IMG/VR virus record: IMGVR_UViG_3300025141_012314
Span: 16,342-80,341 of that record
Source of the DNA: a virus
Direction: 5' to 3' (one strand)
DNA length: 64,000 nucleotides
Each line of letters opens with the position of its first letter. The first letter of the stretch is position 1. Positions 16,048-64,000 of the stretch are shown piece after piece. The position numbers and the translations under genes were made by a program. Below the pieces are notes generated by a model. It saw only the letters and a list, made by a program, of their open reading frames with translations. It was not told the origin of the DNA and did no database searches.

Positions 16048-16646
16048 GCGATAAGAAAATAGGAACGAACACTAATATGGCTGATCCCATAAAACAGACA
16101 CAAGGGGTCAAACTTAATTTAGGTTGTTCTAGCCGTAAATTTCACGGCTGGATTAATATTGACGCAAGACAAGAAGTTTTTCCAGATGTTATAGATAATG
16201 TTTTTACTCTGGAAAGTATCGAAGATTCGTCTGTAGACTTAATTTATGCTTCTCATTTACTTGAGCATATCAAAAGGAAGGAAGTCAAAAGTGTTTTATC
16301 ACGATGGAAAGCGCTTCTTCGGACAAATGGTGTTTTAAGATTATCTGTACCTGACTTTGAAAAAGTAATAAAATATTATTTACTCACTGCAGACTTAGAA
16401 AAATTACACGGACTTTTGCATGGAGGACAAAGAAATGAATATGATATTCATTACATTACTTTTGATTTTAAGTTATTAAAAAGACTTCTGGTAGAAGTAG
16501 GATTTGCAGAAGAAGACATTCGAATCTATTCTTATAAGGAAACAGAACATTTCTTTATTGATGATGGTAGTCAAGCTCACTTGCCACATATGGATAAGGT
16601 CAATGGGATGCTAATGAGTTTAAATGTGGAGGCGATCAAAAGATGA
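16044..16646 (+). CDS. class I SAM-dependent methyltransferase (Methyltransf_11-like)
   Basis: KLNLGC, GWINID, SVDLIYASHLLEH, LRTNGVLRLSVPD. Confidence 0.8.
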   Translation: MSDKKIGTNTNMADPIKQTQGVKLNLGCSSRKFHGWINIDARQEVFPDVIDNVFTLESIEDSSVDLIYASHLLEHIKRKEVKSVLSRWKALLRTNGVLRLSVPDFEKVIKYYLLTADLEKLHGLLHGGQRNEYDIHYITFDFKLLKRLLVEVGFAEEDIRIYSYKETEHFFIDDGSQAHLPHMDKVNGMLMSLNVEAIKR

Positions 16647-22474: not shown

Positions 22475-22811
22475 AATAACACTATCAGTAATACTGACTT
22501 TATCTGTATTAATTAATATAGGCATTGGGCTCTATACACGTCTTTTAATCATCAATCTTCTGTCTGTATCAGAAGAGTTGGATGATCTGCAGATTATGGC
22601 TAAGGGTTTCTCATCTCATCTTAAATCCGTATATGAGTTAGAGACCTTTTATGGCGACGATACTCTTAAGAGATTATTAGATCACGCAATTTCCTTCGAC
22701 GAACAGATGAAAACATTTGAATTTATTATAAACCTTACGGAAGAAGACCAAGAAACAGATGACGACTACACCGACGAATCAGAAGACCAGACGTACGCGG
22801 AAACCGAGTAA
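22461..22811 (+). CDS. hypothetical membrane-anchored protein
   Basis: hydrophobic N-terminal segment (ITLSVILTLSVLINIGIGLY), acidic C-terminal tail. Confidence 0.6.
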   Translation: MSRLEITLSVILTLSVLINIGIGLYTRLLIINLLSVSEELDDLQIMAKGFSSHLKSVYELETFYGDDTLKRLLDHAISFDEQMKTFEFIINLTEEDQETDDDYTDESEDQTYAETE

Positions 22812-23493
22812 GAGCAAAAAGTCCCGTAAAAACTACTATTTTACATCTGTGCACGAAGACGCGATTATCGAATATGTCCAAACAGATTCAGCGCGCCGTA
22901 AAACAGAACTGTACATAAACTTTATACAACCAGCTTTTGACGAGATGGTTGATAAAATAGTCTTTACTTATAAGTTTACTAACTTGCCCAATATCGACAG
23001 TTTAAGAGAAGAGTGCAAGATTTGGCTTATAACAATATTAGATAAATATGACTCTTCGAAAGGCACAAAAGCTTTTTCATATTTTTCTGTGATTACAAAA
23101 AATTGGTTTATCCACAAAGTAAAACAACAGCAAAAAAGACAAAGAAGAGAAATAAATTATAGTTCTATCCCAAAACACTATGAAGAGCAATTCTTATCAA
23201 CCAATGAATCATATCTTTCAAAGCGCGTAGAGAGAGAATTTTGGACATCGTTCCATTGTGAAATGCAATCATGGGATGTAAATCTTATGAAAGAAAACGA
23301 TCTTAAAGTTTATAAAGCTATCAACATCCTTTTTGAGTCGAAAGAGGACATCGATATCTTTAATAAAAAGGCTATTTATTTATATTTGCGAGAGATAACC
23401 GGGCTGAATACAAAACAAATTGTCAATTCGCTTAAGAAATTCAGGAAACGATATCATAATTTTAAAGATGATTGGAACCACGGTAACCTGTAA
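22759..23493 (+). CDS. phage sigma factor, T4 gp55-like late sigma (putative)
   Basis: NYYF N-terminus and KYDSSKGTKAFSYFSVITKNWFI resembling sigma region 2 as in gp55; located just before the structural module. Confidence 0.6.
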   Translation: MTTTPTNQKTRRTRKPSKSKKSRKNYYFTSVHEDAIIEYVQTDSARRKTELYINFIQPAFDEMVDKIVFTYKFTNLPNIDSLREECKIWLITILDKYDSSKGTKAFSYFSVITKNWFIHKVKQQQKRQRREINYSSIPKHYEEQFLSTNESYLSKRVEREFWTSFHCEMQSWDVNLMKENDLKVYKAINILFESKEDIDIFNKKAIYLYLREITGLNTKQIVNSLKKFRKRYHNFKDDWNHGNL

Positions 23494-32534: not shown

Positions 32535-32542
32535 TTATAATT

Positions 32543-34746: not shown

Positions 34747-36371
34747 TGGCTATAAAAAAATACGTAGCTAATGCTGATACAACAATCGTTAACGCATATA
34801 AGACTGATATGGAAACCCGCGGCACAGGCTCTAATATGGGAGCAGCCGATATAGTCGAAATCTTTTCAGTCTACGGTAGGCAATCAACTAGTTCTGCTGA
34901 ACTTTCTCGCGCTCTGGTAAAATTCCCTATTCCTACAATCTCGTCGGATAGAACCGCCGGCACAATCCCGGCCTCGGGCAGTGTTAGCTTTTATTTGAAA
35001 ATGCACTCGGCTCCCACCTCACGCACGGCACCCTCTGGCGCATACTCAATGGTTATCGAGCCTCTTTCTCGCGATTGGCAAGAAGGCTTTGGGCTTGACA
35101 TGGCTGGATATACCGACGTTACCAAGGGCAATGTCGGCGCCAACTGGATGAGTGCTAGCAATACCACAGCGTGGACCAAGATCGGTGGTGATTATATTAC
35201 TGATTCCAACGCAGCCTACCCCTTTGAGTGGTATTCCGCAGACATGACGACCGGATTAGAAGATATTGAAGTAGATATCACAGGCTTGGTTGAACTGTGG
35301 ATGGCTGGCACTTTAAACAACTACGGCGTTGGCGTCCACCTTTCGGGCGCATATGAAGCCAATACTTCAATGGATTATGTCATCAACAGTTCTGGAACAC
35401 CGTCCGGATACACAGCCCTGTTCAATCCCACTGGCTCGACTACCTCTTATTACACGCGCCGTTTCTTTGCGCGAGGATCACAATATTGGTTTAAGAGACC
35501 AACTATTGAAGCGCGCTGGAATTCATCGCGAAAAGATAACAGAGGAGAAGTATTTTACAGTAGCTCTTTAGCGGGGGTTAATGATAATCAGAACACCCTC
35601 TTTCTTTACAACTATGTCAGAGGAAGGCTGAAGAATATACCATCGGTAGGAGTTAACGCGATTTACGTTAGTCTTTACTCAGGCTCTGCGACCAATACTG
35701 CACCCAGTGGTTCGGCAATCAGCCTCCCTAGAACACTGCCATACACTCATGTGAGCGCAATCAACCCATATGTAATAACAGGCGCTTGGGTTGCAACCGG
35801 AATCTACTCTGCGCAATTTGCACTGACGAGTGGGCAAGAACCCGGTAACCGGGCTCCCCTTACCCGTGTGTTTGATGTCTGGCACGATGGAACCGGCTAT
35901 AACACCCCCGGCGCCGGGGTAGAGTTTGTAACGTCCTCGTTCGAACCACAACACTTTAGCGCATCAAGTTATGTACCAAATCCGAAATACTATATGAATA
36001 TTACGAATCTAAAAGACAGCTACAGGACTGATGAGACTGCACGCCTGAACTTGTTTGTTAGACATAAGAACTGGAGCCCAACTATTTATACTGTAGCAAA
36101 CGCTGAAGTAGAGAATACGACCATTCAGAGCGCCTCCTATAGGGTGTATAGAGTATTAGACGACTACGAGGCTCTTCCATACCGAACTGGCAGTCAGAAG
36201 GCTTCTGAGCTTTCTTATGACATATCTGGCAATTACTTTGATTTAGATATGAATCTTCTTGAGGGAGGTTATGCATATGGAATCAAGTTTGCTTTCTATG
36301 ACGATGATATTAAATCATGGTCCGAACAGCCATACGTATTTAAATTCCGAGTAGAAGACTATGAGTATTAA
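34746..36371 (+). CDS. virion structural protein (DNRLRE-like beta-sandwich N-domain)
   Basis: ADTTI, SRALVKF, DWQEG, EVDITGLVELW...NYG, RPTIEARW; baseplate context. Confidence 0.5.
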   Translation: MAIKKYVANADTTIVNAYKTDMETRGTGSNMGAADIVEIFSVYGRQSTSSAELSRALVKFPIPTISSDRTAGTIPASGSVSFYLKMHSAPTSRTAPSGAYSMVIEPLSRDWQEGFGLDMAGYTDVTKGNVGANWMSASNTTAWTKIGGDYITDSNAAYPFEWYSADMTTGLEDIEVDITGLVELWMAGTLNNYGVGVHLSGAYEANTSMDYVINSSGTPSGYTALFNPTGSTTSYYTRRFFARGSQYWFKRPTIEARWNSSRKDNRGEVFYSSSLAGVNDNQNTLFLYNYVRGRLKNIPSVGVNAIYVSLYSGSATNTAPSGSAISLPRTLPYTHVSAINPYVITGAWVATGIYSAQFALTSGQEPGNRAPLTRVFDVWHDGTGYNTPGAGVEFVTSSFEPQHFSASSYVPNPKYYMNITNLKDSYRTDETARLNLFVRHKNWSPTIYTVANAEVENTTIQSASYRVYRVLDDYEALPYRTGSQKASELSYDISGNYFDLDMNLLEGGYAYGIKFAFYDDDIKSWSEQPYVFKFRVEDYEY

Positions 36372-39300
36372 GAAGTTATTTCACGCCACAGACGAGTCTA
36401 GAAATTATCTTTCAGAAGCCGAACAAAAAGATATATACAAAGCTGTTGAATCTGAAAAAAACTTAGAAGAACTTAACGAGCTTAAAGAAGCTTTTGTTCC
36501 CCAAGTAGACTATTCTAACCCTGCGCAGTTCGCTAGGTTTGGTTCTGCATATCTATACTATAAATCAGCTATTAGCAATATACTGGATTTCTATCCTTAT
36601 GATGGTTCTGACGCAGAAAAGAACCGATTCCACAATAAAACATACCCGATAGACAAATACATCTTAGACAATAACTATCCTAAATCTACAGGGTATGGTA
36701 TTATTTCCGCGGATGGCTGGGGAACTCAGTCTTCTATCTCTGGCGGTTATGGTGTGCCGGCCACTCAAGAACACATAACCTTCTTTGCTGGTCCCGGTAC
36801 CGGCTCGTTTCTATCAGGCACAGCTGCCACAAGCATGATGCCGGAGCCCCACAATAGCAAGTTCCAATATTCTAATGTTTATGAAGAAAACCCCTATCTT
36901 AATGCCGGACTTACTTCTGATTATGGATCTGGCTCCCGGGACTCAAACTTAAAAGCTGACTTTGATCGCGGCGTAACAGTGGAGTTTTGGCTCCAGACGG
37001 GATCTCTGGGCGGAACAGCCGACACCCAAAAACTAGTCGTTTTTGACATGTGGAATAACGAGCACTCATCAAGTGCTGACTACGGACGCATCACTATTGA
37101 GTTAACAGGTGGTTTGCGCGGAACAAGCACTCTTGGATGGACTGATTCTCCATTCCTGTTAACAGTCCAATCAGGAAACCTCTTCTATAATCCAGACTCC
37201 CCCGGAACATTTCAGCAAAAGATTGGTTTAGGGATCACTACAGCATCTTTGGGAGAATGGCACCATTATGCAATTGCTATTTATAATTCCGGATCGGATC
37301 TAAGAACCGACTTTTATGTCGATGGAAGGATGAATGATGCAGGAACCCCGACATACGCCACCGCAGTAGATGCAATCGATACCGCCGGCGTAAAAGCTGC
37401 GAACGTCGATAGTGCGTTTTCATTTACTATTCCAACTTCCGCTGGTGGCGAAGGTCCCGCAACAACGATTCGTCTGTCTGCTGCACAATCCACTGCCCCA
37501 CCAGTGGCCGGCGCAGGTAGTTCGATTGGCATTGGTTTTTCCGACAAGACTGATGCTGAGATCGCAGCGCTTATTATTAATGCTATTAATGCAGTTGCTA
37601 CAACAAATATCGTTTTTGCAGTATCCAATAATGGACAGGCCGGCTATGATGCTGGTATTACAGCCACACAGGGTTCAAGCGATACTCAAATTACACTTAC
37701 AATGGACAACCCCGGCATCGCTGGTAATCTTAATATCGCCCTTGTAGACACCCTCGGTACGTCCCTGGTTGATACTGCAGACTTTACTGGCGCGACCGGA
37801 TTCCAAGCCTCATCTCTTGGAGAATTAACTTCCAAGAATATGATGGGGCGCCTAGGAGCCTTACAATATGCTCCATCTGGTACCATGGCAAAATCGACGT
37901 GCACCGACTTAGACGGAGCCGGCAAGCTTTCTGGCTCCATTGACGAATTCCGTTATTGGAAAACCAAACGAACCGGTCATGATATTGGCAGAAACTGGAT
38001 TAACCAAGTAGGTGGCGGCGTCAACACTGACATAGCGAACACCGAGCTTGGAGTTTACTACAAGTTTAACGAGGGAATCACAGGAAATTCAACCGTTGAC
38101 GGCACAGTGCTAGATTACGGCGGAAGAATTTGTAATGGTCGCTGGCAAGGTTATGCTGCTAACTCTAGAAATACTGGCTCCGCTATCGTATCGGCATCGG
38201 CTGCTCCATATGAGCGCCTAGATCCGGTTATTCGCCCTGAGCATCCCGACATTATTTCGCTTCGAAGTAATCTGCTTTCAACTGGCTCAACTCATGATCG
38301 CCAGAACAACAATCTATTCATTAATTACATGCCAAGTTGGATACAAGATGAATACGAACCTGACGACGCATATAACGGCGATCTAAGCCTGATGTCACAT
38401 GTTATCGGATCGTATTTCGATACCATGTATCAACAAGTAAGGGCTCTCCCTAGCTTTGTGAAGGCATCATACACCAGTGGTTCTCACAAGCCTGTGCCAT
38501 TTGCACAGCACTTACCGCAATCATTGGGGCTCGATACGCCTGAACTGTTTGTAGACTCTAGTATTATTGAGCAGTTCCTTAACCGCGACGACAAGACTCT
38601 GTTTGAGGGAGACCTCACCGAGACCAAAAACTTAATATATCTCAATCTTTACAACAACTTGGCTCACATCTTTAAGAGCAAAGGTACTGAAAGAGCGATC
38701 AGAAACACTCTAAGATGCTTCAATATAAATGATAATGTATTTAAACTTAACGTTTACAATAGAAATCATACATTTGAGCTAAAAAACAACCTTCGACAGA
38801 CCCTCTCAAAAGAAACAAGAGTAAATTTCGGTCACCCCGACAACCTGGAAGCAGTTGTTTACCAAGCAATGAGTTCTTCGAACCCTAACAGCTTGGGCTA
38901 TATTTCGGGAAGTGGCTGGAAAGCCGCCGGGCAAAGAGTGGGTTATGAGCAACAATATGGGTTTACACTGGAATCTGATGTAATCTTTCCGCATTATGTG
39001 GCAGAAGTAGATCCTATTCAGAGGAACTACACGACTTCCTCTCTTTTCGGTATGTACACCGTACCTACCGGCTCAATTATTGATAACAGCAATCCGGAAG
39101 GAGTACCGTCGGGACTTGATCCTAGAGTGGACTTTTTGGATGGCACTAATACTGCCTTTGCAACTAGCTCTACCGACACCATTAGCGATCCAGCCAACTT
39201 GCAGGTCTACGCAATTCGAACTGCTGCTGATTCTAAAGATGTTTATTTCCAGCTGGGATCTCGTAACGATCCAAGGCCACTATTATTTCACACAGCTTCG

Positions 39301-42300
39301 TCCCTCACGAGTAGTGTTTTCTATAACGTTTATGACAATGAGCGCTGGAACCTCTCAGTTAGAATGAAGCCAAGCAAGCCGTTTGCCAACATCGTGACCG
39401 GCGCCTTGAGTGATACAGGGCAGCAGTTCACCTACGATGTGGTATTCCGCGGCATAAACACCTTTCTAGGCGATGTAAAAAACAGTTTCGAACTAACGGG
39501 CACGTTGAATTATGTCTCGGGCTCAAACCTTTTGGCTGCCTCCAAGCGCGTATATTGCGGCGCCGAAAGAACAAACATTACAGGAACCCTCTTAAATAAA
39601 TCCGATGCCCAAATCAATAGTGTAAAATATTGGACCAAACATATTGATAATCATAGTCTTGACCAACATTTATATGATATGACAAATCAAGGTATCTCCG
39701 GCTCTTATCAAAATGTAGCCTTTTGGGATCCCAATAATGGTCCATTAGATGTACTTAATCTTAACACTTTAGCACTGAGCTGGAACTTTAATAATATAAC
39801 CGGCGGCTCTGATGTTAACGGAAACTTTTATGTAGAAGATGCGAGTTCTGGCTCCACGGAGCTTCGAACAGAGAACTACGGCTGGCTCGGTAATAAGACA
39901 GGTTGGCAGCATACTGGATATGGTTATGGATTTGCAACATCTTCGACAGCTGTATATGTTAAAGACCCAATCAACTCCTTTAAGTTTGTAAATCCTGAAA
40001 GAGCAGTTTCTAATGATATGATTCAGATTCTATCGGACGATGATGAAGTATTGGGCATCGTAGAAACAGTGCCATCTTATTATTATACACTAGAAAAAAG
40101 TTTATATGGTGCTCTCTCGGAAGAGATGTTGGACTTCCTTGCAGGTGTCGTAGATTTCAATAACGTCATCGGTGCACCAGTTAACCGATATCGCAGCCGA
40201 TACAAGAATTTAGAGAAGCTTAGAGAAAGCTTCTTCCGACGCGTTAATAAAGTTTCAAGCGTCGAGAAATACATTAACTATTATAAATGGTTTGATGGCA
40301 GCATCTCAACAATTATAGAGCAAATGCTACCAGCATCTGCAGACTTTGAAGCAGAAGTCTTCAACACGATTGAAAGTCATGTGCTTGAGAGGAATAAATA
40401 CCAAACCCCTTTCCCGACATACGAGTTTATTGAACCCGATCTTGATTCAACAATGGAAGGGCTACAATCTAATACATGGGACTGGCAATCAGGACACTCC
40501 ATGGAGCCGTCCTCTCCGCGCCGGACTGATGTTAATAAGCCCTTTGTTAAACAAAGGATGCTTAGAACTTCTATAGAATTAACATCCGGTGATCCAGAAA
40601 TCGATGGACAGAGAGAGAATATTCGAAAGATCGCATTTTCTCAACCAACACTAAGCTCAAGCGCAAATGTCAGATACACCCCAGCCGGCGTAGGATATTC
40701 AGCACAGCAATTCCGCCGCAGAGCCCTATCGGCTCCGTACGAGATGACAATAGAACTCTCAGACAATAAGAGTAATATTCACGGTGGAGTAAACTTCCCT
40801 CCGAACAAAAACATTCAGTTTACATACGATGCTTTATATCCATTTGGACCTCTTGGTACTGATCCTGTTGTTCCGCTTAATGTTCTGTTCACTCAAGAAA
40901 GCGATATTGTAGAACTCGCGGAACTATATCTAGCAGACTTTAATCCGAAAGGAAAAATAATAGAGAGGTCATTCAAGGTTCATTTCGGTCGTGAATGGGA
41001 AGACGGACTGGGTGGAAAAAACCTTAAGTCCTCCATGGCATATCCTTTTAGTATTGTCAGTTCGTCTGTTACAACAGGATATAATAAAGATGTTGTCAAT
41101 GGCTTAACCGGCGGAATCCAGATTACAAACCTGCACAACGATGTGTACGGCTCTGACATGGAAAAACCCATGCAGGGTCCTTTCACCGAATATGCTGTTG
41201 GTGGACACCAGCATCGACACACACGTATTAATAAGGGAGCAGACAATTATAAGACCCGCGCAGAGGCTTGGAAGCTTCTCGTTGGGGAATGTGGTGGCGC
41301 CCCATCGGGCTCAATGGGGCTTGTCGCACCAGACTATCCATGGCCCGACATAGGACAAGATCCTGCAGCAGCCGAAGGAACTGTATCGCTTGCAGTCGGG
41401 AATGTAACTACTGGTGATTCGGTAACGATTGGTGATGGAGACACCACCAAAACATTTGAGGTACCGTTCGAAAATGAGAAATCGGTGTTATTCACTAACT
41501 CTGCCAACTCATGGATTGCTGTCTCTGGAGATAAGAGTTCAAGTTATGGACTCCCCTCTGATCATCCTTTGGACTTTTACTACTTAGAAAAGGCTACAAT
41601 TAGTGCGTGGGTATCCGCTAGCGCCACAGACAAAAACGCGTATATTTTCCAAGCCGGCGCACCAAATGGAGCAATAGACGTCGCAATACGCACGGACAAC
41701 ACTGTGCGCCTCACACAAGCATGGTACAGACCAGCTGGAGGTCCATATAATGTCAATGCACACTGGGAAACAGATGCTGCGGTAATTACTACCGGGAAAT
41801 GGCATCATATTGCCGTAACATATGATGCCACGCTATCAGCCAGTCAAGACCCGAAATTCTTCATTGATGGTGTGCTGGTTGACTCCTCAGCAGGCATGGC
41901 CGTGCCGGCGGATGCGGACACAAAACTACAACTAAAAAGAATCGTCGATCGCGAAAGCACGACGAAGGTTATAACAACAATCGGTGGATATAACGTTAAC
42001 GTCCCTTTCAGCGGCGCAATCGACGAAATGTCAATTTGGCAGCTTAGTATGAGCGCCGAACAGATAACAGAGGTTTATGCTACCGGTTCGGTGCAAAATC
42101 TATTTAAAGTTTCTGCTTACGTCTCTGATAATACCAACCTATATTCATGGTGGCGCATGGGAGACGACGCTAACGATGCTGTAGATGGCGGCGGATCATA
42201 CTCACTAGGAGTTAACTCGATAGTTGATCAAACTGGCCGAGCAAATGGTAACCCGGGTTCAGAGCAGTCAATATCTACCAATGTTGTAACAGCCTCAACG

Positions 42301-45300
42301 GCAGGACCCAACGTCTCTTGGACAAAGGGATCTAACTACTTTAACTCCATACAAAATCTTAAAGATGCGATAAACGAGCAGTATGTTTCGGGCAATCTAT
42401 CGATCACAGCATCTGCTGGCTCCGGATCCACAGTTGTAAATCTGAATAACTCTCTTTACGGAGACGCAGATTCTACAAAGATTTATATTAATGGTGCATT
42501 TGGTAATGTATCGAGTAGCAAATCTGGTGCTAGCATCTCTGTTTCTGGCATGGCCGGCGGACGAAACCCGACAATTCTCAATTACAACGCACCTCGCGCA
42601 ACGTATTATAGAGATCAGGTCGCAAAACGTCCAGTTAACATCAGAAATATTGAGCTAAAAACAGGCTCAACGATTATTGGAAACTATCGACATAGGTATG
42701 AATTCGTACAAACTGTCGGTGCTTGGGAGAATCCACGCGCGTTTGTTGATCACCAGCCAACATTGCCTTCGATTATTAACGACAACAATAACCTAACCGG
42801 CTCAGGAATCGCAGGAAACTTCTTGCTGATTAATAGGACATCGGCTAGCCACTTTGACTATGGGCTTACTTACGCTCCAACGCAGCTCACTGGCTCGAAG
42901 AACAAAACAGTGATGACTTCACGCTTTAGCGCCCCAGGCTCAAGAGAGACCTTCCAGCGCGGACTAAAGGATGTTAGGTCAGCCGAGTTCTCGCCATACA
43001 ATACGATCCCTTATAAAAATCAAACGGTGATTAAGAACTCCCAGGGCGCTAGCGGTACGATATCACAAACTTCCGGATACAGGGTATCAGATATCCACGG
43101 AAAGGACTTCGGACTTCGGGCCCTTCTCTCACGACCGTCTGCTCGCTTCGGACGCGACTCGCTATTTTGTGATGATCCGGGAGCCTCATATGAACAAGCT
43201 CCAAGCTTCCAGAAGAACAATAGAAATACGAAGATTAGTGTTAAGGCTGCAGAACAAGGTTTTGCTGAAGATAAACAATACGATAACTTCTTTGTGACTC
43301 ACCAGATTCCTCGAATGGATCGCCAGTATGCTTGGGTAACTAACTCTTTGTCAGTACACACCCCTCTTCTACACGGTGGCGCCAGATATTATGGAATGGC
43401 TCCCGTACATGGTGATCATGCTGGCTATTATGTTGATAAGACCAATTCTTCATATACATACGAACCTTATTTCTCATATGTTTCTGAAAGTGATGTTCGA
43501 CCGCTGACAACTAGACATCCCGCTCGTACATTTGCAGAAGGTGGATTGGTACAGGTGCATTCAAATCTGAATATCTATACTTTAGATGCAGTCACTGCTT
43601 CTCAAAACTATTTAGGATTCCCGCTAGATCAGCCATCTCTAAGTGCCGCCAGAGTCGGAGCCTATGGATTCCAGCGAAATGGCAATTATTTCAATAGAAA
43701 AGGTAATAAAGCGGCATATCTCCTAAAGACCGAAGATCTCGATGCCGCGACTGTCACTGCCTCAGCAAACTACCTTAACTTGGTTCTCACAAGAAGAGGC
43801 GCCAACTATGGATGGAACTGGACAGCAACACACCAGCAAGACCACCCGATTCTTCGCGCCGAGAAAAACACAAACAAGATCTCGGTGATAACCGGATCAG
43901 ATAACGGCATCAATCGATACCGCTTATCCCCTGTTTCTATGAGAGGGCGCCCTGTATATATCAACTATAGCAATGGTGATGAAGACATTACCCTTAAGGC
44001 AACTCATAATAATGAGGAGATCTTCTTTAACGATGCAGAATTCAATAACCTTCTTGGTGTTTCGCCTGAGAATATTACAACACCATACGAGCAAATCGTC
44101 CGCGCAATACAACCTAGTTTAAATTGGGTACAATATAGTGAAAACATTTTCCCATCTCTTCGAAATGAGTTCGCGACAAAGAGTTTAGACAAGCCAACTT
44201 ACGATAATAAGTATTGGCGCAACAGTCGTACTGAAAGAACCACTGTCGGAACATCATTTAATAACTCCTGGAATGTGCCCCGTAGAGGAGACATTGCTGG
44301 CAACGCTACTACTCTTAAAGAGGGAGTTATCATTAATCAAAGTTCTTGGCCATTAGACGCTCAAGAAAGCTTTCTAACTCGCTCAACACTGCCCTATTAC
44401 TCGTCATCTGCCAACGATGACCAAACATTTAGACAACAACGTGTTGGCGAACTACAAAATAACTACGGACCCTACAAGCCCGGGAACGATTTCGATGCCG
44501 ATCATGAACGACGCATGCTGGTCTCTCCAAGTGCCAAATATAGTCGTAAACACTTGCTTCAGGGCGCCAAAACCGTAACTGGTCCCAACGGAACACATAT
44601 TAATGAGACCGGTTCGGCTGTGGGAATGAGCTTTGCAAACTTCCAAGTCGGCGCCGGCGAAGCGCTTTGGGAAACTGGTGATCAAGCGGGAATCCTCGTG
44701 AAGAACGACGAAGGAGGCTTCACGTTCGAGGCTTCGGCATCACAGCCATGGTATAACTCATATGAAGACTATAGACAAGATCTTAAAGTATTAGCAAAAG
44801 ACTTTTCGGTAATCCCTGAGTTTAGAATTAGTGAACACATTGAGGACTATGTTAAATACGGAATATTCACACCAAACAAGACCGACACTTTCGAACTCCC
44901 AGAAACAGGGATCAATAGTTCCACTTCATCTTTCTATAAAGATTACTCAAACTCAGATTTCATGTCGGGCTTCCTTAAGGTATCAAAAGACACGCTTCTC
45001 GACGCAAAAGAAATAAGTCTGGTCTGCAGCGCCGCAATTAAGTTTAATCCCTACAAAGGATTCTACCCAGTGCAGAGAACGATGGATCTATCATCTCAAT
45101 TCTCAAGCTCATACGCCGATGGTTTTACTGGATTTTTGACTGCCTCACAAACGCCAATACCTTTTTTAAACACGAAGCCATGGAAAAAACTACTGACAGG
45201 CTCCACAGCTGTTAATGGTATCACTCCATTCATTGCTCCCGGCATTTTATTCAACTCGATTAAAGCCGGCATGGCTGTTGACTATCCAATAGTAACAGAT

Positions 45301-47637
45301 GGTTCCAAACTGCGATCGGTAGACATCGGCGGAGTAATTGATACAGAGAATCCAGCATTCGATGTGGCTGCCGGTGATTGGCACACCTACGTTTTATATG
45401 GATCTGCCAGTGATGATAGTTCCCCCTCAGTAGAATACCAATCCCGCGGGTGGAACGGTTCTGGTTCGATCTGGGATAAGCGACTGCCCTTCGAGGCAAT
45501 TATAGAGCCGGAAGTATATCTGCAAGGCGCCTCATTTGTTAGCCAAGAGGCCCACCCATCAGCCTCCAACTCAATAGTAACTAGCTGGGGCGGTAAACTC
45601 GGTGGCGAAACGACTTATACCCGAATGGCACGCAACTTTTTTGGCGAAGTCGGATCGTTTTTCCTCAAAGATAAGGGCTTTACGAGATTAGAGTCGCAAA
45701 CAATTTCTGATGACCTTAGATTCCCCTCTGGCAGTGTTTACGGCGCCAGAATTAAGCTTCATCGTTCGACTCGTGGACCAAGAACATACAACGCAGAGGA
45801 TTACCCACAAATAGCATCCGGCTCTTGGCCAGATGCCAGCAGCAGCATTCACAGCCCGTGGGCAGCATACGGCGGCAGAAAGTGGGATCCGTCAAGCTCA
45901 TTGGGCTTGTCCTCTGGTGCCCCAACATATGGACTCTGGGCGTCGGGTTCCTTCCCGGTACCACAAGACCCGATACATAATCCAAACTTCGAAGAGTCTT
46001 TCACCTTGTATAGTAGACCCAGCGCTTTCTTCCCTCCGTGCGGAGGAAGACCCCCTATGTATTTGCAGAATGATAATCCCCCAACCCCGGGGCCAATGAT
46101 ACCAGAAGACTCACTAGTATTCCATCAGGGTGCCATGGGCTCAACAATAGGTATGAATCCTGCCGGCACACCACCATATTATGATGGCGAGGCGTGGGTT
46201 GATCTTATCTTTAGACCATCGCACACTAAGAGTTATGATTTGGAACAGATTTTAGCGGAAACGGAGATGGTATATTGGAGATTTGATGCGGGATATGCCG
46301 GCACGAATTTAAATTGGGATAACAGTTGTACAGAGAGATTGTCTGGATACCTTAATCAAGGTCCAACCACTTTAATACCGACGTATAACAACAATTTCTT
46401 CTGTGCGAAAGGCGCGGCCGCCGCCGCGGGAAATTATGCCGGAATCCCAATTTACGATGGCATGCACATTAACGCCAACTCAATGCAAGCTAGCGCAAGC
46501 TTAAACTTGTTAGGAGTGGAGAAGGTGAAGTTCGAAGAAATCGACAAGTTCGGAAATCTAGGAAGTACCAGAAACATCACCGAAGGTAAAAAGTGGGTTA
46601 TCCAACCTAAGTTTGAGACCCCGCACATGAACTTTAACTATAAGGGTGATCGCGGCATTAACAGCGGTTCATCAACGATTACAGTTCCGCAGAACTTCTC
46701 AGCGTCAGTACCACGCGGCATGTGGCATCAGTTCGGAACAATCCCGACAGACCCATCAACTGGTATCTTTATGGAGATCGGAGACATCCCAGAAGAGTGG
46801 CTCAAGAATCACTATATGGTTATTAATCAACCTAGTCCATATAATGATCACAACATCTCAAAAGGAATTTTCTTAAGCCATAACATGAAATCGCTTGCAA
46901 CTTTAGCCGGCTTCGATCAAACTAAGTCCCGTGCACGTTTGGGTGAGCTAGCGGAAAGCAGGACAATACGAGAAGCTGTAGTTGCTGTTCCGTATATTGT
47001 AGACTATCAAAAGGATGCAACCGGAGAAACCGGAAAACAAAGAAAGCGTTTTATATCGATTCCTCCGGAAAGATATTCGGCTGCGACTAATGAGCAAGTT
47101 GGTTCTAAATCCGGCGATTCTTTAGATGCATCTGGCGAATCCATCCGGAAGCTAGTTCAAAAAATGCCTCGATACGTAATGCCACCACAGTTCGACTTTA
47201 TTAGTAATGATAATATCGACCCTCTCGTAATGTATATCTTTGAGTTTGAATACAGCTTCGACAAAGATGACCTTTCATATATGTGGCAGAACATTGCACC
47301 GCGCGATTATCGAAAAGTAGACATGCAATTCCAATCGGTCGCACACGAACTAATGGATACTGAACTGCTATCAGAAAGAAACTTGACAGAGAGTGAAAAT
47401 CTGCGCTGGATGGTATTTAAGGTGAAACAGAAAGCTCAAACTGGTTATTACGATCAAGTTGTTAGACAGGCTGGGCAAGCATCTGATCAGTTCGAAAACA
47501 AAAAGCTCACTGACAAAGACGACGTGGGCTATCAGCTAAATTACAACTGGCCTTATGATTACTTATCTTTCGTAGAGCTAGTTAAGATAGATGCAGAAGT
47601 CTTATATAAAAAGCCCGACAAGAAGGATGAGAGCTAA
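36361..47637 (+). CDS. 3758-aa giant baseplate wedge/adsorption protein with LamG (ConA-like) domains
   Basis: LamG motifs VTVEFWL/WHHYAIA/FYVDG/SGSIDEFRYW and TISAWV/GKWHHIAVTYD/FIDG/FSGAIDEMSIW; FKSKGTERAI wedge-like KGT motif. Confidence 0.7.
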   Translation: MSIKKLFHATDESRNYLSEAEQKDIYKAVESEKNLEELNELKEAFVPQVDYSNPAQFARFGSAYLYYKSAISNILDFYPYDGSDAEKNRFHNKTYPIDKYILDNNYPKSTGYGIISADGWGTQSSISGGYGVPATQEHITFFAGPGTGSFLSGTAATSMMPEPHNSKFQYSNVYEENPYLNAGLTSDYGSGSRDSNLKADFDRGVTVEFWLQTGSLGGTADTQKLVVFDMWNNEHSSSADYGRITIELTGGLRGTSTLGWTDSPFLLTVQSGNLFYNPDSPGTFQQKIGLGITTASLGEWHHYAIAIYNSGSDLRTDFYVDGRMNDAGTPTYATAVDAIDTAGVKAANVDSAFSFTIPTSAGGEGPATTIRLSAAQSTAPPVAGAGSSIGIGFSDKTDAEIAALIINAINAVATTNIVFAVSNNGQAGYDAGITATQGSSDTQITLTMDNPGIAGNLNIALVDTLGTSLVDTADFTGATGFQASSLGELTSKNMMGRLGALQYAPSGTMAKSTCTDLDGAGKLSGSIDEFRYWKTKRTGHDIGRNWINQVGGGVNTDIANTELGVYYKFNEGITGNSTVDGTVLDYGGRICNGRWQGYAANSRNTGSAIVSASAAPYERLDPVIRPEHPDIISLRSNLLSTGSTHDRQNNNLFINYMPSWIQDEYEPDDAYNGDLSLMSHVIGSYFDTMYQQVRALPSFVKASYTSGSHKPVPFAQHLPQSLGLDTPELFVDSSIIEQFLNRDDKTLFEGDLTETKNLIYLNLYNNLAHIFKSKGTERAIRNTLRCFNINDNVFKLNVYNRNHTFELKNNLRQTLSKETRVNFGHPDNLEAVVYQAMSSSNPNSLGYISGSGWKAAGQRVGYEQQYGFTLESDVIFPHYVAEVDPIQRNYTTSSLFGMYTVPTGSIIDNSNPEGVPSGLDPRVDFLDGTNTAFATSSTDTISDPANLQVYAIRTAADSKDVYFQLGSRNDPRPLLFHTASSLTSSVFYNVYDNERWNLSVRMKPSKPFANIVTGALSDTGQQFTYDVVFRGINTFLGDVKNSFELTGTLNYVSGSNLLAASKRVYCGAERTNITGTLLNKSDAQINSVKYWTKHIDNHSLDQHLYDMTNQGISGSYQNVAFWDPNNGPLDVLNLNTLALSWNFNNITGGSDVNGNFYVEDASSGSTELRTENYGWLGNKTGWQHTGYGYGFATSSTAVYVKDPINSFKFVNPERAVSNDMIQILSDDDEVLGIVETVPSYYYTLEKSLYGALSEEMLDFLAGVVDFNNVIGAPVNRYRSRYKNLEKLRESFFRRVNKVSSVEKYINYYKWFDGSISTIIEQMLPASADFEAEVFNTIESHVLERNKYQTPFPTYEFIEPDLDSTMEGLQSNTWDWQSGHSMEPSSPRRTDVNKPFVKQRMLRTSIELTSGDPEIDGQRENIRKIAFSQPTLSSSANVRYTPAGVGYSAQQFRRRALSAPYEMTIELSDNKSNIHGGVNFPPNKNIQFTYDALYPFGPLGTDPVVPLNVLFTQESDIVELAELYLADFNPKGKIIERSFKVHFGREWEDGLGGKNLKSSMAYPFSIVSSSVTTGYNKDVVNGLTGGIQITNLHNDVYGSDMEKPMQGPFTEYAVGGHQHRHTRINKGADNYKTRAEAWKLLVGECGGAPSGSMGLVAPDYPWPDIGQDPAAAEGTVSLAVGNVTTGDSVTIGDGDTTKTFEVPFENEKSVLFTNSANSWIAVSGDKSSSYGLPSDHPLDFYYLEKATISAWVSASATDKNAYIFQAGAPNGAIDVAIRTDNTVRLTQAWYRPAGGPYNVNAHWETDAAVITTGKWHHIAVTYDATLSASQDPKFFIDGVLVDSSAGMAVPADADTKLQLKRIVDRESTTKVITTIGGYNVNVPFSGAIDEMSIWQLSMSAEQITEVYATGSVQNLFKVSAYVSDNTNLYSWWRMGDDANDAVDGGGSYSLGVNSIVDQTGRANGNPGSEQSISTNVVTASTAGPNVSWTKGSNYFNSIQNLKDAINEQYVSGNLSITASAGSGSTVVNLNNSLYGDADSTKIYINGAFGNVSSSKSGASISVSGMAGGRNPTILNYNAPRATYYRDQVAKRPVNIRNIELKTGSTIIGNYRHRYEFVQTVGAWENPRAFVDHQPTLPSIINDNNNLTGSGIAGNFLLINRTSASHFDYGLTYAPTQLTGSKNKTVMTSRFSAPGSRETFQRGLKDVRSAEFSPYNTIPYKNQTVIKNSQGASGTISQTSGYRVSDIHGKDFGLRALLSRPSARFGRDSLFCDDPGASYEQAPSFQKNNRNTKISVKAAEQGFAEDKQYDNFFVTHQIPRMDRQYAWVTNSLSVHTPLLHGGARYYGMAPVHGDHAGYYVDKTNSSYTYEPYFSYVSESDVRPLTTRHPARTFAEGGLVQVHSNLNIYTLDAVTASQNYLGFPLDQPSLSAARVGAYGFQRNGNYFNRKGNKAAYLLKTEDLDAATVTASANYLNLVLTRRGANYGWNWTATHQQDHPILRAEKNTNKISVITGSDNGINRYRLSPVSMRGRPVYINYSNGDEDITLKATHNNEEIFFNDAEFNNLLGVSPENITTPYEQIVRAIQPSLNWVQYSENIFPSLRNEFATKSLDKPTYDNKYWRNSRTERTTVGTSFNNSWNVPRRGDIAGNATTLKEGVIINQSSWPLDAQESFLTRSTLPYYSSSANDDQTFRQQRVGELQNNYGPYKPGNDFDADHERRMLVSPSAKYSRKHLLQGAKTVTGPNGTHINETGSAVGMSFANFQVGAGEALWETGDQAGILVKNDEGGFTFEASASQPWYNSYEDYRQDLKVLAKDFSVIPEFRISEHIEDYVKYGIFTPNKTDTFELPETGINSSTSSFYKDYSNSDFMSGFLKVSKDTLLDAKEISLVCSAAIKFNPYKGFYPVQRTMDLSSQFSSSYADGFTGFLTASQTPIPFLNTKPWKKLLTGSTAVNGITPFIAPGILFNSIKAGMAVDYPIVTDGSKLRSVDIGGVIDTENPAFDVAAGDWHTYVLYGSASDDSSPSVEYQSRGWNGSGSIWDKRLPFEAIIEPEVYLQGASFVSQEAHPSASNSIVTSWGGKLGGETTYTRMARNFFGEVGSFFLKDKGFTRLESQTISDDLRFPSGSVYGARIKLHRSTRGPRTYNAEDYPQIASGSWPDASSSIHSPWAAYGGRKWDPSSSLGLSSGAPTYGLWASGSFPVPQDPIHNPNFEESFTLYSRPSAFFPPCGGRPPMYLQNDNPPTPGPMIPEDSLVFHQGAMGSTIGMNPAGTPPYYDGEAWVDLIFRPSHTKSYDLEQILAETEMVYWRFDAGYAGTNLNWDNSCTERLSGYLNQGPTTLIPTYNNNFFCAKGAAAAAGNYAGIPIYDGMHINANSMQASASLNLLGVEKVKFEEIDKFGNLGSTRNITEGKKWVIQPKFETPHMNFNYKGDRGINSGSSTITVPQNFSASVPRGMWHQFGTIPTDPSTGIFMEIGDIPEEWLKNHYMVINQPSPYNDHNISKGIFLSHNMKSLATLAGFDQTKSRARLGELAESRTIREAVVAVPYIVDYQKDATGETGKQRKRFISIPPERYSAATNEQVGSKSGDSLDASGESIRKLVQKMPRYVMPPQFDFISNDNIDPLVMYIFEFEYSFDKDDLSYMWQNIAPRDYRKVDMQFQSVAHELMDTELLSERNLTESENLRWMVFKVKQKAQTGYYDQVVRQAGQASDQFENKKLTDKDDVGYQLNYNWPYDYLSFVELVKIDAEVLYKKPDKKDES

Positions 47638-60613: not shown

Positions 60614-61514
60614 TGCACTAGGGTATAGTTCGAATCAGGGCGATGAGTATTTGTTCGTCTGCCCCTCGTGCGAACATCATAAGCGCAAGCTGTCGGTTAA
60701 CATAGCAAAGAACGTCTACCAATGTTGGGTGTGCGACTACAAAGGACGAAATGTCCGACGCTTGATCAGACGCCACGGTAGCTTTACACATCTCCAGCGC
60801 TGGGACGAGTTAACTGGACGCCAAGACATAGCTCAGTTCGAGGACCTGTTTTCGACTGAGAAGCTCGCAGAGGTGCACGAACCAGTCGAACTACCTGAAA
60901 GCTTCCAAAGTCTAGCCAACGGCATCCCACGCTCAGCAATCACTGCTTGGAGATACCTCCGAAGGAGAGGAATAACAGAAGCCGATGTTCTTAAGTGGAA
61001 GATTGGGTTTTGCTTTACCGGCGAGTATCGAAATAGAATTATAATTCCATCGTTTGATGACGAGGGAGATTGCTCGTATTTCATTGCGAGATCCTATAAC
61101 GGCGATTCCTATAAATACAAGAACCCGAGATCCTCAAAGAACATTGTGTTCAACGAATTGTATGTTGACTGGAATGAGGATCTAACAATCGTTGAGGGTG
61201 TATTCGATGCAATCGTTGCAGGGAATAGTGTTCCGATTATGGGGTCGACACTAAGAAGTGACGCGAGATTAATACAGAAAATTGTATACAACGATACTCC
61301 TGTGTACATGGCTCTGGATCCAGATGCGAGAGAAAAAGAGAACAGAATCATCGAGACACTGTTGCGTTATGACATTGAGCTTTATAAAATTGATGTGAGC
61401 GGATACGAGGATGTGGGCACTATGCCAAAAGAGGTGTTCCAAGAACGCAAACAAAAGGCGAGCTTTATCGATCGAGACGACTATTTACTGATGAATTTGC
61501 TCTCGGCAGTGTAG
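60576..61514 (+). CDS. DNA primase (zinc finger + TOPRIM)
   Basis: CPSC..H..KLSVN..CWVC, YLRRRGI, RIIIP, FIARS, KYKNP, IVEGVFDAI, ALDPDA, EDVG; TTG start. Confidence 0.85.
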   Translation: MSNRQKKLKILSDALGYSSNQGDEYLFVCPSCEHHKRKLSVNIAKNVYQCWVCDYKGRNVRRLIRRHGSFTHLQRWDELTGRQDIAQFEDLFSTEKLAEVHEPVELPESFQSLANGIPRSAITAWRYLRRRGITEADVLKWKIGFCFTGEYRNRIIIPSFDDEGDCSYFIARSYNGDSYKYKNPRSSKNIVFNELYVDWNEDLTIVEGVFDAIVAGNSVPIMGSTLRSDARLIQKIVYNDTPVYMALDPDAREKENRIIETLLRYDIELYKIDVSGYEDVGTMPKEVFQERKQKASFIDRDDYLLMNLLSAV

Positions 61515-61524
61515 GAGAACCCCG

Positions 61525-61953
61525 ATGAAAATCACTAAAACACAACTCAAACAGATTATTAAAGAAGAACTCGAAGCGGCTTTTATTCAAGAAGAGTTAG
61601 AAGAAGCCTCTTATGCTCGCCAATCTGGCGGCAGATACGACCCGGCGTCAGGCAGGCAGCGCAGGTACTCCACGAGTGAGCGCGGACTAGATAGTCCAAG
61701 ATACGCGCCTCCCAAAAAAAGCCCAAGACAACAGGTGATTAGTCAACTTGAACACTTCCGAGCGCGTAAGAATCAAGCAGTGGAAAAATGTCAAGCTGCC
61801 GGATTCAACCCTGAAGAGATCGATATGGGGGATCCTTATCAGCGCGCTCCAGAGCACGAAAACGTCTGGTGCGACGACTATATCCACGTCCAACGCCAGA
61901 TTGATCAACTTGATCAGCGCCTGAAATACATGAGAGAGAGCACCACGAAATGA
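61525..61953 (+). CDS. hypothetical protein with MKITK-leader (candidate internal head protein)
   Basis: MKITKTQLKQIIKEELE; AGGAG SD. Confidence 0.6.
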   Translation: MKITKTQLKQIIKEELEAAFIQEELEEASYARQSGGRYDPASGRQRRYSTSERGLDSPRYAPPKKSPRQQVISQLEHFRARKNQAVEKCQAAGFNPEEIDMGDPYQRAPEHENVWCDDYIHVQRQIDQLDQRLKYMRESTTK

Positions 61954-63602
61954 AGCTCTTAATGGAAAACTGGAACAAGTTCCTTTCCGAAGAAGAAACA
62001 TCACAAGAAAAAGTAAAAGATGCTGCTGCTATTATGCAGAACATAGGATTCGCCGGCGAAACCGGCGGCAAAAGCTTTATTATTATGGTGGGCGGCCCCG
62101 GTACCGGAAAGGGTGGGGTAATCGCCACAGATCGTTTTATGAGTTCAGTTATTCAAGCCACTGGTGGTAAGATGGCCGGCGGCGACTTTATTAAGTCACT
62201 CCCTCCTGGAACAATAAATCAGTTTGCCTCCGAGGTGGATTCAGTTTTGAGATTAATGCAGTGGGACTTGGCAGCAAAAGACTATCAAACATTGGCGCGC
62301 GCCGCACAAAATCCCGAACAATGGACCGCCGCAGTAAATAATTATAGCCAGAAACCACAGGGCGATATCAACCTTATTGCTACGATAGCCGGCGCAATTG
62401 GGGCAACTCCCGATCAGTTGGCAACACCACAAGGGGGTCAACTTTTTTCTCAAACTTTTCCTAACGTTGAAGCGTATGCGGGTACAAAAGATGAGGAAGC
62501 TAGAGAAGCCTTAAAGGGAAAGGACGGTCACAAGGGCATAAAAGCTATGTATATGCAACTTCGTTCTGGGTGGGGAGAAGATCCTAGCGCAAAAACGATT
62601 AAGAACATGGCTGTTAAAAGATATAACGATGAACTGGAAACACAATTACAACAGTTCATGAGTAGAGGGCAACAACAAGTAAAGGAAGCAGAAGCGGCTG
62701 ATAGCGCGCAGCTAGCCAAACAAGTGGCCGGCGCCGGCGAAGTCGAAGGAGATTTATCTCAAGCAGCAAAAGATGTTTTTATTTTAGATTCCGCTGGTGA
62801 AGATTTGCCGACTCAAGATTATGCTGGGCAGCTACAGATCGCTAAGAAAGCAGGATTTGAGACTACGATTGTCTGGTTAAAGACTGGACCGGAAGTTAGT
62901 TATTTAGGCAATTTAGAAAGGGCCGTTGTAAGTGGAAAGCGCGCTGTCCCCCCGGACGAAATTGCCGCGTATTATGATGCCGCCTCCGGAGAAGATGGCG
63001 GTGTAGGTGGCAGTGGCGATACAATCGAAGAACATTTTAAGAAACTATTAAACACGGAGTTTGAAGGTTCGGCTCTCTTAAACAACCTCGTTGTTATTAT
63101 GAATAAAGATGATCAACGAGTATCACCAGAGACGGTGAAAGACATTACGTCCGCCGTGTGTGTCAATCCTATAGGGGATCCCAGTGCTGAGCCAGCAGAT
63201 CATATCAGTCATTGGCTCTGTGATTCAGAAAAAATTGCTGCCATTACTGGATATGATATTGGAGAATTGCCTATTGCGGATCCAAGCGAATCGCCCAAAA
63301 ACTATAATGAATTAGTAAAAGCTATTTTGGCAGACTTCAATAATGTGATTAATGGCGAGGAAGTGCCGGACGTCCTCGCGAGCCTTAATATTGACGCAGA
63401 TGCGATCAAAGGGTCCCCCGATCCAAAAGCTCTTGCCAAAAAAACAGCCGACAAGATTCAGTCGACTTTTGTAAAAAAAATTAGAAAGGATGTGAAAGGC
63501 GGCAAAGGTGGACAATTTGCTTCCAAGATTCTTAAATCCCCTCTTAACGAAGAGAAAGTTTATAAGCGCTGGACGCTTATCGCAGGAATGTCACCCAAAT
63601 AA
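61950..63602 (+). CDS. P-loop kinase (zeta-toxin/AAA_33-like) with short Glu-terminated leader
   Basis: MKLLMENWNKFLSEE leader; IIMVGGPGTGKG Walker A, FILDSAG Walker B, NLERAVVSGKRAVP lid. Confidence 0.6.
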   Translation: MKLLMENWNKFLSEEETSQEKVKDAAAIMQNIGFAGETGGKSFIIMVGGPGTGKGGVIATDRFMSSVIQATGGKMAGGDFIKSLPPGTINQFASEVDSVLRLMQWDLAAKDYQTLARAAQNPEQWTAAVNNYSQKPQGDINLIATIAGAIGATPDQLATPQGGQLFSQTFPNVEAYAGTKDEEAREALKGKDGHKGIKAMYMQLRSGWGEDPSAKTIKNMAVKRYNDELETQLQQFMSRGQQQVKEAEAADSAQLAKQVAGAGEVEGDLSQAAKDVFILDSAGEDLPTQDYAGQLQIAKKAGFETTIVWLKTGPEVSYLGNLERAVVSGKRAVPPDEIAAYYDAASGEDGGVGGSGDTIEEHFKKLLNTEFEGSALLNNLVVIMNKDDQRVSPETVKDITSAVCVNPIGDPSAEPADHISHWLCDSEKIAAITGYDIGELPIADPSESPKNYNELVKAILADFNNVINGEEVPDVLASLNIDADAIKGSPDPKALAKKTADKIQSTFVKKIRKDVKGGKGGQFASKILKSPLNEEKVYKRWTLIAGMSPK

Positions 63603-63614
63603 AGGAACAATAAG

Positions 63615-63875
63615 ATGAAAATCACCAAAGCACAACTTAAGCAGATCATCAAAGAAGAACTCGAAGCAGTTCTCAAGGAACACGGCACTCGCCATGCCGG
63701 TGTTGGACTTGGATCAAAAGATACTTCGAAGGAATACCAACGCGGTTATCAGGATGGCAAGTATGGCGAGCCTCCTGTTTCTGATGTCGGCGATGATTAT
63801 GACGCTGGCTACCAAGCCGGTCGAGATGACGCCGATGCAGATGCCGAACGTGACTACGAAATGGGGCATTCCTAA
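63615..63875 (+). CDS. hypothetical protein with MKITK-leader
   Basis: MKITKAQLKQIIKEELE; EYQRGYQDG and YDAGYQAG repeats. Confidence 0.6.
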   Translation: MKITKAQLKQIIKEELEAVLKEHGTRHAGVGLGSKDTSKEYQRGYQDGKYGEPPVSDVGDDYDAGYQAGRDDADADAERDYEMGHS

Positions 63876-63876
63876 A

Positions 63877-64000
63877 ATGAAAATCACCAAATCCAAACTC
63901 AAGCAGATCATCAAAGAAGAGCTTTCAGTGCTTTCCGAGGAAAACAGTACTACGCCTATTGAAGAAGGCATGGAAAACCTCACACCAGAAAACCTACAAA
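63877..64000 (+). CDS. partial ORF with MKITK-leader (runs off the window; not in ORF track)
   Basis: ATG 63877 translates MKITKSKLKQIIKEELSVLSEENSTTPIEEGMENLTPENLQ. Confidence 0.75.
   Translation, partial: MKITKSKLKQIIKEELSVLSEENSTTPIEEGMENLTPENLQ

Follow-up and report, generated by a model that had tools for sequence, protein, structure and literature searches.

The stretch of DNA analysed here, referred to as the window, comprises the last 64 kb (positions 16,342 to 80,341) of the 80,341-b IMG/VR virus record IMGVR_UViG_3300025141_012314, for which CheckV gives a completeness of 44%. All of its genes lie on the + strand, and it closes with an array of four tightly packed open reading frames (ORFs; 61525–61953, 61950–63602, 63615–63875 and 63877 to the end), the products of which begin with one of two short leader sequences. 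Leader A (MKITKxxLKQIIKEE followed by a hydrophobic residue) makes up the first 16 residues common to three of them. Leader-A gene 1 (61525–61953, + strand; 142 residues, 41 bits against a hidden Markov model, HMM, of the leader) carries the leader in residues 1–16 with I12-K13-E14 near its end, followed by a similar second site, I-Q-E, at residues 21–23. The middle of its cargo, the part behind the leader, is basic and Arg-rich, and the protein has only three close homologs, all of which keep the leader. The stop codon of this gene overlaps the start of the next ORF (ATGA), which encodes a zeta-toxin-like P-loop kinase of 550 residues (61950–63602, + strand). The kinase is headed by leader B (MKLLxENWxKFLxE), its own start being MKLLMENWNKFLSEE, which spans residues 1–15 and contains L12-S13-E14. 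Leader-A gene 2 (63615–63875, + strand; 86 residues, 44 bits) has its second site, L-K-E, at residues 20–22 and a very acidic cargo rich in Asp, Gly and Tyr. Leader-A gene 3 (63877–64000, + strand; 38 bits) starts one base past the stop of gene 2 and is open at the contig end; L-S-E and I-E-E sites follow its leader, and the start of its cargo resembles a recurrent family of three other loci (L006, L037 and L097). No Pfam or PHROG domain was matched in the 142- and 86-residue proteins. Since the end of the window is also the end of the contig, the leader array may extend further.

An earlier reading of this DNA from its letters (the sequence-only reading) had pointed to near-identical leaders on three ORFs, alike also in their DNA and followed by complete divergence, and to a different leader on the ORF between them. 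These observations were confirmed. A degenerate 44-nucleotide (nt) pattern of leader A has exactly three matches in the window and none in 100 shuffles, and neither regular-expression nor profile searches found a further copy in the whole 80,341-b contig. The first 48 nt of the three copies are identical at 39–42 positions, with longest exact runs of 11–20 nt; in the 20 nt before these 48 and in the sequence after them the genes are unrelated. Past residue ∼24 the three proteins have no common sequence, and each falls into its own blastp cluster. The leader of ORF 61950 proves to be a second recurrent family, represented by two more genes at contig positions 181 and 675, before the start of the window. 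One of these two genes shows a HAD-type DxDxT motif directly after the leader.

Beyond this contig, leaders were collected by a back-translated pattern search of IMG/VR viral contigs, supplemented with variant copies in the flanks of the fetched loci. The leader-A pattern matches at least 119 stretches of these contigs. Among the marine viral sequences so fetched, at least 268 distinct ORFs start with leader A, and 252 of these ORFs are complete (median 110 residues, range 36–422). After removal of the first 24 residues, the leader-A cargos form 191 blastp clusters, 174 of them singletons; one large cluster of 33 cargos turned out to be an artefact of single linkage, which had joined several small families with read-through ORFs. 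The core motif lies exactly seven residues after Met in 279 of 295 cases and nine more follow a GTG start, with four inside longer ORFs, so that about 98% of the occurrences are N-terminal. For leader B, at least 51 distinct ORFs were counted in the fetched loci, with as many as six arrayed at one locus. The complete relative G001 has six leader-A genes, two clear leader-B genes and two weaker leader-B-like ones. With a 30-position profile of leader A, 12,074 clusters were found at E ≤ 1e-3 among 1.84 billion cluster representatives. Counted in this way, the leaders are widespread. They are portable N-terminal modules on cargos that are almost all unrelated, and the sequence-only reading had likewise taken them to be modular. 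In some ORFs (P0141–P0154 and other top profile matches; L041 and L109) between two and four leader-A units share a reading frame uninterrupted by stops, and Met is the first residue of many internal units; these ORFs may be cargo polyproteins or fused neighbours. Searches of 50,697 cultured-phage records with the 86-residue protein (tblastn) and the leader DNA (blastn) returned nothing or noise only, the strict leader-A pattern has no match in the cultured phages immuto and Mel-JY01, and T4-like cultured phages match neither the leader-A profile nor the pattern. The profile search does find a shorter leader-A variant in Flavobacterium phage immuto, in genes 175, 176 and 190, beside the primase. 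A literature search with the leader strings returned only unrelated papers.

We compared the codons and the residues of the leaders position by position. Over the 268 leader-A ORFs the synonymous codons are mixed, with ATC 114, ATT 89 and ATA 25 at position 3, ATT 123 and ATC 121 at position 12, and GAG 140 and GAA 128 at position 15. The amino acids are thus fixed and the synonymous codons free, which argues for selection on the peptide and not on DNA or RNA. Conservation at the leader-A end was measured on 128 ORFs outside the selection imposed by the fetch pattern. Here position 12 is always Ile, position 13 varies freely (K, L, R, Q, A, E, M or I), and E14 occurs in 123 of 128 and is never replaced by Asp. 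In leader B, position 12 is Leu or Ile in 51 of 51, position 13 is again free and E14 is found in 49 of 51; beyond it conservation collapses. Both leaders therefore end in [I/L]-x-E with a free middle (P2) residue, which is the shape of the cleavage motif of the T4 head protease gp21. This protease cuts after L/I-X-E, and Asp at P1 in the T4 capsid-targeting sequence (CTS) blocks processing (PMC9026906). The leader-A helix, which is charged and amphipathic, extends weakly as far as residue ∼22. Just past the leader, a second [LI]xE site lies within residues 16–30 in 60% of the leader-A ORFs, compared with 8–15% in later 15-residue stretches; this is a 4- to 8-fold excess, and all three leader-A genes of the window have such a site. 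The extra cleavage-type sites that the sequence-only reading had listed near the leaders are thereby borne out at the sequence level.

The product of ORF 61950 matches Pfam Zeta_toxin (PF06414) with 25.1 bits against a gathering cut-off of 22.3, and a leader-B relative matches the same family at 1e-13. Its Walker A P-loop, G-G-P-G-T-G-K-G, is formed by residues 48–55 (62091–62114, + strand), in which G48, G49, G53, K54 and G55 are invariant in the homolog alignment. An AlphaFold2 model built on the 13 homologs found has a predicted local distance difference test score (pLDDT) of 75 and a predicted template-modelling score (pTM) of 0.72. Residues 1–39 and 539–550 score below 50 and are detached, which places the leader and the C-terminal end outside the predicted fold. 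The top Foldseek matches of the model are zeta toxin and PezT structures (3q8x, 1gvn and 2p5t) with probabilities of 0.96–0.99; the scores are weak, with E values of 3e-3 to 3e-2 and a TM-score of about 0.4 on target length. The resemblance to the zeta toxin, PezT and AvrRxo1 P-loop kinases consists of the Pfam match, the Walker A loop and, at these weak scores, the closest model folds; in contrast to zeta toxin and PezT, the window kinase is twice the size and has large insertions, a phage leader and a tail. Pfam and PHROG searches found no epsilon- or PezA-type antitoxin domain in the flanking 142- and 86-residue ORFs. Homologs P0012–P0014 begin with leader A, intact or weakened, and the other homologs with leader B, so the leaders have evidently been exchanged on the same cargo. 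In one further homolog the gene call continues into a following leader-A unit, which matches the gene order of the window. That kinase homologs carry leader A or leader B interchangeably is a new observation from these alignments.

The C-terminus of the kinase contains a second conserved element, consisting of L-N-E (residues 532–534) followed by the tail R-W-T-L-I-A-G (residues 540–546; the module spans 63543–63599, + strand). The R-W-x-x-L-A-G tail is kept by all full-length kinase homologs, down to 29% identity, and an [L/M/V]-x-E site lies about six to eight residues upstream of it. We searched for the motif R-[WM]-x(1-2)-[LIVM](1-2)-A-G in 2.94 million residues of the six-frame translation of the fetched Far-T4 DNA. 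There are 17 distinct occurrences, 16 of which lie 8–21 residues before a stop. The main carriers are the proteins encoded directly upstream of the major capsid protein (MCP) gene, here called scaffold-position proteins, in G001–G005, L032, L077, immuto and Mel-JY01; the equivalent in phage RM378 has the variant R-I-K-R-L-A-G-L at its end. More than 4,407 homologs of this family were found, and among the best 120 of them 119 terminate in the tail. The motif is further carried by a small ORF adjoining the protease gene (L127, L050 and L007) and by proteins in L083, L035 and L120. An [LIVM]-x-E site just upstream of the tail occurs in the cargos and the small proteins and is rare in the scaffold-position family (6 of 119). 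In immuto gene 187 (L169:11632-12096; 154 residues) the motif appears as R-M-Q-K-L-A-G-I-I at residues 12–20, and its position near the N-terminus suggests that the motif is used at either end of proteins.

The scaffold-position protein has an acidic coiled-coil make-up and an N-terminus resembling T4 gp22, and a profile search of the PDB matched only coiled coils. Its gene position, its acidic coiled-coil composition and its N-terminal resemblance indicate that it is most likely the scaffold. As read from the sequences, the kinase thus carries at its C-terminus the tail that ends the scaffold-position protein of its lineage, which is likewise new here. A shared terminal peptide implies a shared partner, which for the scaffold-position protein would most plausibly be found inside the prohead, and this argument is independent of that from the leaders. 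The leader-A profile has no match in the head-module proteins of G001 and leader B has one far below significance (1.3 bits); the leaders were therefore apparently not copied from a scaffold segment.

Window protein 57540 matches only immuto, Mel-JY01, RM378 and one uncultured record, and the closest cultured phages of the G001 MCP are likewise Flavobacterium phage immuto, Microcystis phage Mel-JY01 and Rhodothermus phage RM378. These relatives belong to the Far-T4 group (PMC4360716); the paper on that group does not mention the leaders. By these matches, the carrier of the array appears to be an uncultured marine Far-T4 (RM378/Immutovirus-like) myovirus. The gp21-like protease that the sequence-only reading called for was found in its relatives: the five large leader-bearing contigs, including the complete 185.5-kb G001, all contain Peptidase_S77 (E values of 1e-30 to 1e-33) and Gp23, and Peptidase_S77 is also present in the cultured relatives immuto and Mel-JY01. 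Among further contigs, 11 of 27 contain Gp23, both complete ones included. The end of the window is syntenic with G001, in which homologs of 57540, 58683 and the primase are followed by a 260-residue ORF and then by a leader-A gene. Downstream of this gene G001 encodes a 1049-residue protein, terminase, portal, protease, the scaffold-position protein and the MCP, so that the head module is expected just past the end of our contig. Two fibre-like genes of ∼900 residues lie between the protease and scaffold-position genes of G001 (L140:3827-9331), which breaks the T4 order 21-22-23. Where T4 gp23 is cut during maturation (F-L-T-E), the aligned Far-T4 MCPs show L-L-R-E, I-V-S-E or L-I-S-E. They thus keep [L/I/V]-x-E at the T4 cut site, and the specificity of the protease seems to be conserved.

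An octamer, CTATTTAY, recurs near gene starts in these phages. It has 14 forward and 0 reverse copies in our own contig and 24 forward and 2 reverse copies in G001, and for ∼60% of the copies an ORF starts within the following 100 nt; the usual distance is 7–80 nt. Its positions in the window include 26073, 32542, 36081, 56353, 56459 and 61481, and the copies of G001 are spread over L136–L145. It precedes the scaffold-position gene, a gp25-like gene (copy at 32542), the gene for a 2131-residue protein (copy at 26073) and that for a 998-residue protein, a putative sheath as judged by size and position; further structural genes also have it upstream. It also precedes the leader gene of G001 and the first leader gene of the window; the copy there, CTATTTAC (61481–61488, + strand), lies 45 nt upstream of the gene and inside the 3′ end of the primase gene. 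On this pattern, CTATTTAY is a candidate late promoter of Far-T4 phages. The T4 late promoter, TATAAATA, was also tried and was rejected, as 4 of 12 copies lie on the coding strand, which is no enrichment.

Most of the leader cargos have no known domain. Among the leader-A cargos with domains are three leucine-rich repeat (LRR) proteins, a YkuD transpeptidase, a J-domain protein and a GNAT; the leader-B cargos include Zeta_toxin/AAA-type kinases, GNATs, an HAD/NT5C nucleotidase and M78/DUF4344 peptidases. As far as their domains can tell, such cargos look effector-like.

Since both leaders end in a T4-type head-protease cutting motif, they are most likely head-loading tags. We judge it somewhat better than an even chance that leaders A and B are tags of the load-and-clip type of the T4 CTS. 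The modular leaders, their pattern of conservation, the lineage, the synteny and the shared tail are observed, and we propose docking, cleavage, packaging and injection as the steps that would connect them. The four genes of the window would form one co-transcribed array, each product of which starts with a short amphipathic helix (leader A or B). The leader would dock the protein on the core of the assembling prohead, where it would be enclosed as the shell closes. A gp21-family protease would then cut behind the Glu that closes the leader's [I/L]-x-E and, in many cases, also at a second site slightly further downstream, which would free the mature cargo inside the head. The kinase would have a second address in its C-terminal R-W-x-x-L-A-G tail of the scaffold-position type, and the L-x-E site ahead of this tail means that both of its ends could be trimmed, as in T4 Alt. 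Finally, the cargo would travel with the DNA into the next host. The sequence-only reading had proposed a capsid zip code for injected effectors, and this proposal is supported in part; each of its predictions that could be tested at the sequence level holds, and packaging, cleavage and injection are what we infer from them.

Several points weigh against this proposal. Our own contig has no match to Gp23 or Peptidase_S77; it is a 44% fragment, which accounts for the missing protease, and the presence of both genes is deduced from synteny. The carriers of the leaders are known here from genes alone. The cargos are mostly acidic, with a median isoelectric point of 4.9 (75% below 6 and 10% basic), whereas the internal proteins (IPs) of T4 are basic; the background among the other ORFs of G001 is 45–51% acidic. 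Some leader-B cargos, namely the HAD/NT5C nucleotidase and the GNATs, resemble ordinary cytoplasmic enzymes. In addition, [LI]xE is short and frequent in helices, and leader A has no similarity to the T4 CTS (MKTYQEFIAE) beyond the terminal hydrophobic-[I/L]-x-E. CTATTTAY immediately precedes just 13 of the 257 leader-A genes. No homology between the scaffold-position protein and T4 gp22 could be established (BLAST E value of 21; hhalign probability of 2.8%), so the label 'scaffold' derives from the position, composition and N-terminal resemblance given above.

The leaders might instead dock their cargos to another phage-built assembly, such as a replication or nucleotide-synthesis factory or a structure organized by the phages' own tubulin/FtsZ-like protein, the terminal Glu motif then being incidental. 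Enzymes typical of the cytoplasm among the leader-B cargos (P-loop kinases, the HAD/NT5C nucleotidase and GNATs) would fit such a role, as would the arrays that adjoin primase and recombination genes and those of one sub-lineage directly behind a Tubulin-family gene. However, this explanation, which we consider unlikely, accounts neither for the invariant P3 and P1 residues and free P2 residue of [I/L]-x-E nor for the 4- to 8-fold excess of second sites, and it leaves unexplained why the kinase shares its tail with a protein encoded beside the MCP. A generic amphipathic helix is also conceivable, serving in oligomerization, in recognition by a chaperone or protease (as a timing degron) or in binding a common host target, with no packaging involved. 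The leader is charged and amphipathic with its weak continuation to about residue 22, the cargos are small, acidic and mostly domainless, as are many early host-takeover proteins, and multi-unit ORFs, with two to four leaders in frame, are among the top library matches. Yet leaders A and B are unrelated apart from the cleavage-type motif at their end and nevertheless swap on homologous cargos, they are confined to a lineage with a gp21-type protease, and a promoter-like motif is common to the leader array and structural genes. We regard a generic helix as quite unlikely.

It is very improbable that the conservation lies at the level of nucleic acid, as a translation-initiation or regulatory RNA element or as a recombination handle, with a peptide of no function. 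The first codons are rich in A, a composition that generally promotes initiation, the window copies are identical at 39–42 of 48 positions, and in T4 the two CTS copies are 30/30 identical in their DNA. The natural synonymous variation strongly disfavours an RNA or DNA role all the same: over the 268 ORFs the amino acids are fixed and the synonymous codons free at nearly every position, and the sequences upstream of the ATG are unrelated. The recombination handle, which the sequence-only reading had offered as a second role of the shared DNA, gains indirect support from leader swapping, seen as the exchange of leaders A and B on the kinase homologs; against it, the exact runs between the window copies reach just 11–20 nt. 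Export or membrane targeting is the least probable of the explanations. One leader-A cargo is a YkuD L,D-transpeptidase, which acts on peptidoglycan, and some cargos have hydrophobic C-terminal stretches, but the leaders are K/E-rich and contain no hydrophobic core, signal-peptidase motif or twin-arginine motif.

The closest known counterpart of the proposed load-and-clip tags is the T4 CTS, a 10-residue N-terminal propeptide of IPII and IPIII that targets the core and is removed by gp21. In the T4 record the CTS DNA is present twice, in ipII and ipIII, 30/30 identical and 697 nt apart. The systems have in common a short (10–19 residues) N-terminal propeptide on otherwise unrelated small proteins, its hydrophobic-[I/L]-x-E end, neighbouring genes, repeated leader DNA and cargos that are hypervariable between related phages. 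They differ in that the targeting parts are dissimilar and that Far-T4 phages have two leader families and T4 one. Leader A is longer, with 14–16 residues and a weak helical extension that contains the second site, and its cargos are mostly acidic. The Far-T4 system is larger, with ∼10 genes in each genome and ∼12,000 clusters in all, and is known here from its genes; at least one of its enzyme cargos also has a scaffold-type C-terminal tail. For the kinase, the nearest analogue is T4 Alt, a head-packaged and injected ADP-ribosyltransferase that gp21 trims at both the N- and C-termini (PMC9026906). Both are enzyme cargos with cleavage-type sites at either end; in contrast to Alt, the kinase is of the zeta-toxin-like P-loop type, and a scaffold-position tail has not been described for Alt. 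In the giant phages phiKZ, 201phi2-1 and SPN3US, head-internal proteins are cut after Glu by the gp21-related proteases gp175/gp245 (PMC9026906, PMC7411985). Here too many head-internal proteins are processed and the propeptides contain redundant cleavage sites; unlike the Far-T4 leaders, these propeptides are long and have no single shared short leader, the motif is small residue-x-E, and the phages belong to another lineage.

A more far-reaching form of the head-loading proposal seems to us possible, though the odds are against it: Far-T4 phages would load proteins by two addresses, the interchangeable clipped leaders A and B and a tail borrowed from the scaffold, and would deliver a hypervariable arsenal together with their DNA. 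This arsenal would, equally tentatively, amount to ∼12,000 protein clusters, including zeta-toxin-like kinases, LRR and J-domain proteins and acetyltransferases. A short terminal peptide at either end of a cargo is sufficient for addressing it into an HK97-fold shell, as in encapsulins, P22 and the herpesvirus scaffolds. By analogy, the tail could be the phage counterpart of an encapsulin cargo-loading peptide, a parallel that we would not press beyond a suggestion. The likeness to encapsulin cargo-loading peptides and to the C-termini of the P22 and herpesvirus scaffolds lies in a short terminal peptide that addresses the cargo, in which case the tail would bind to the capsid protein; in sequence, the R-W-x-x-L-A-G tail has no relation to the cargo-loading peptides or to the coat-binding ends of the scaffolds.

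If the head-loading proposal is true, the T4 strategy of loading, clipping and injecting, known from a handful of coliphage proteins, would be a major and diversified route in abundant ocean phages. The leader would then serve as a simple sequence flag by which virion-borne effectors could be picked out from the thousands of marine viral genes now called 'hypothetical', and as a portable tag for packaging foreign proteins into phages other than coliphages. A scaffold-type tail on an enzyme cargo would be a second, previously undescribed address to the capsid of a tailed phage. Because leader-A-like genes occur in the cultured phage immuto, the idea can be tested at the bench.

Elsewhere in the window we found gp25- and gp6-like baseplate wedge genes, a RuvC-like resolvase and a DnaG-type primase. 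The ORF at 22759–23493 (+ strand; 244 residues) has no Pfam match; over nearly its whole length it weakly matches the late sigma family of the T4 gp55 type (phrog_234, E value of 1.3e-3). The baseplate and tail region contains two giant ORFs on the + strand, at 26139–32534 (2131 residues) and 36361–47637 (3758 residues); the first 620 residues of the former have no PHROG match. Far-T4 contigs also encode a Tubulin/FtsZ-family protein (L146:3018-4145; 34 bits in Pfam against a cut-off of 33), and in one sub-lineage the leader array lies directly behind this gene. A conserved 60-nt element with a regulatory look upstream of ∼9% of the leader-A genes (for example in L009, L037, L080 and L116) proved to be the 3′ end of the Tubulin-family gene and was discarded. 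Lastly, a leader-B protein of 320 residues is encoded behind an SbcC/Rad50-like gene (L146:2039-3001); it has no Pfam match, and its terminal D-G-H-H-R-W stretch recalls nucleases of the ParB/sulfiredoxin type.

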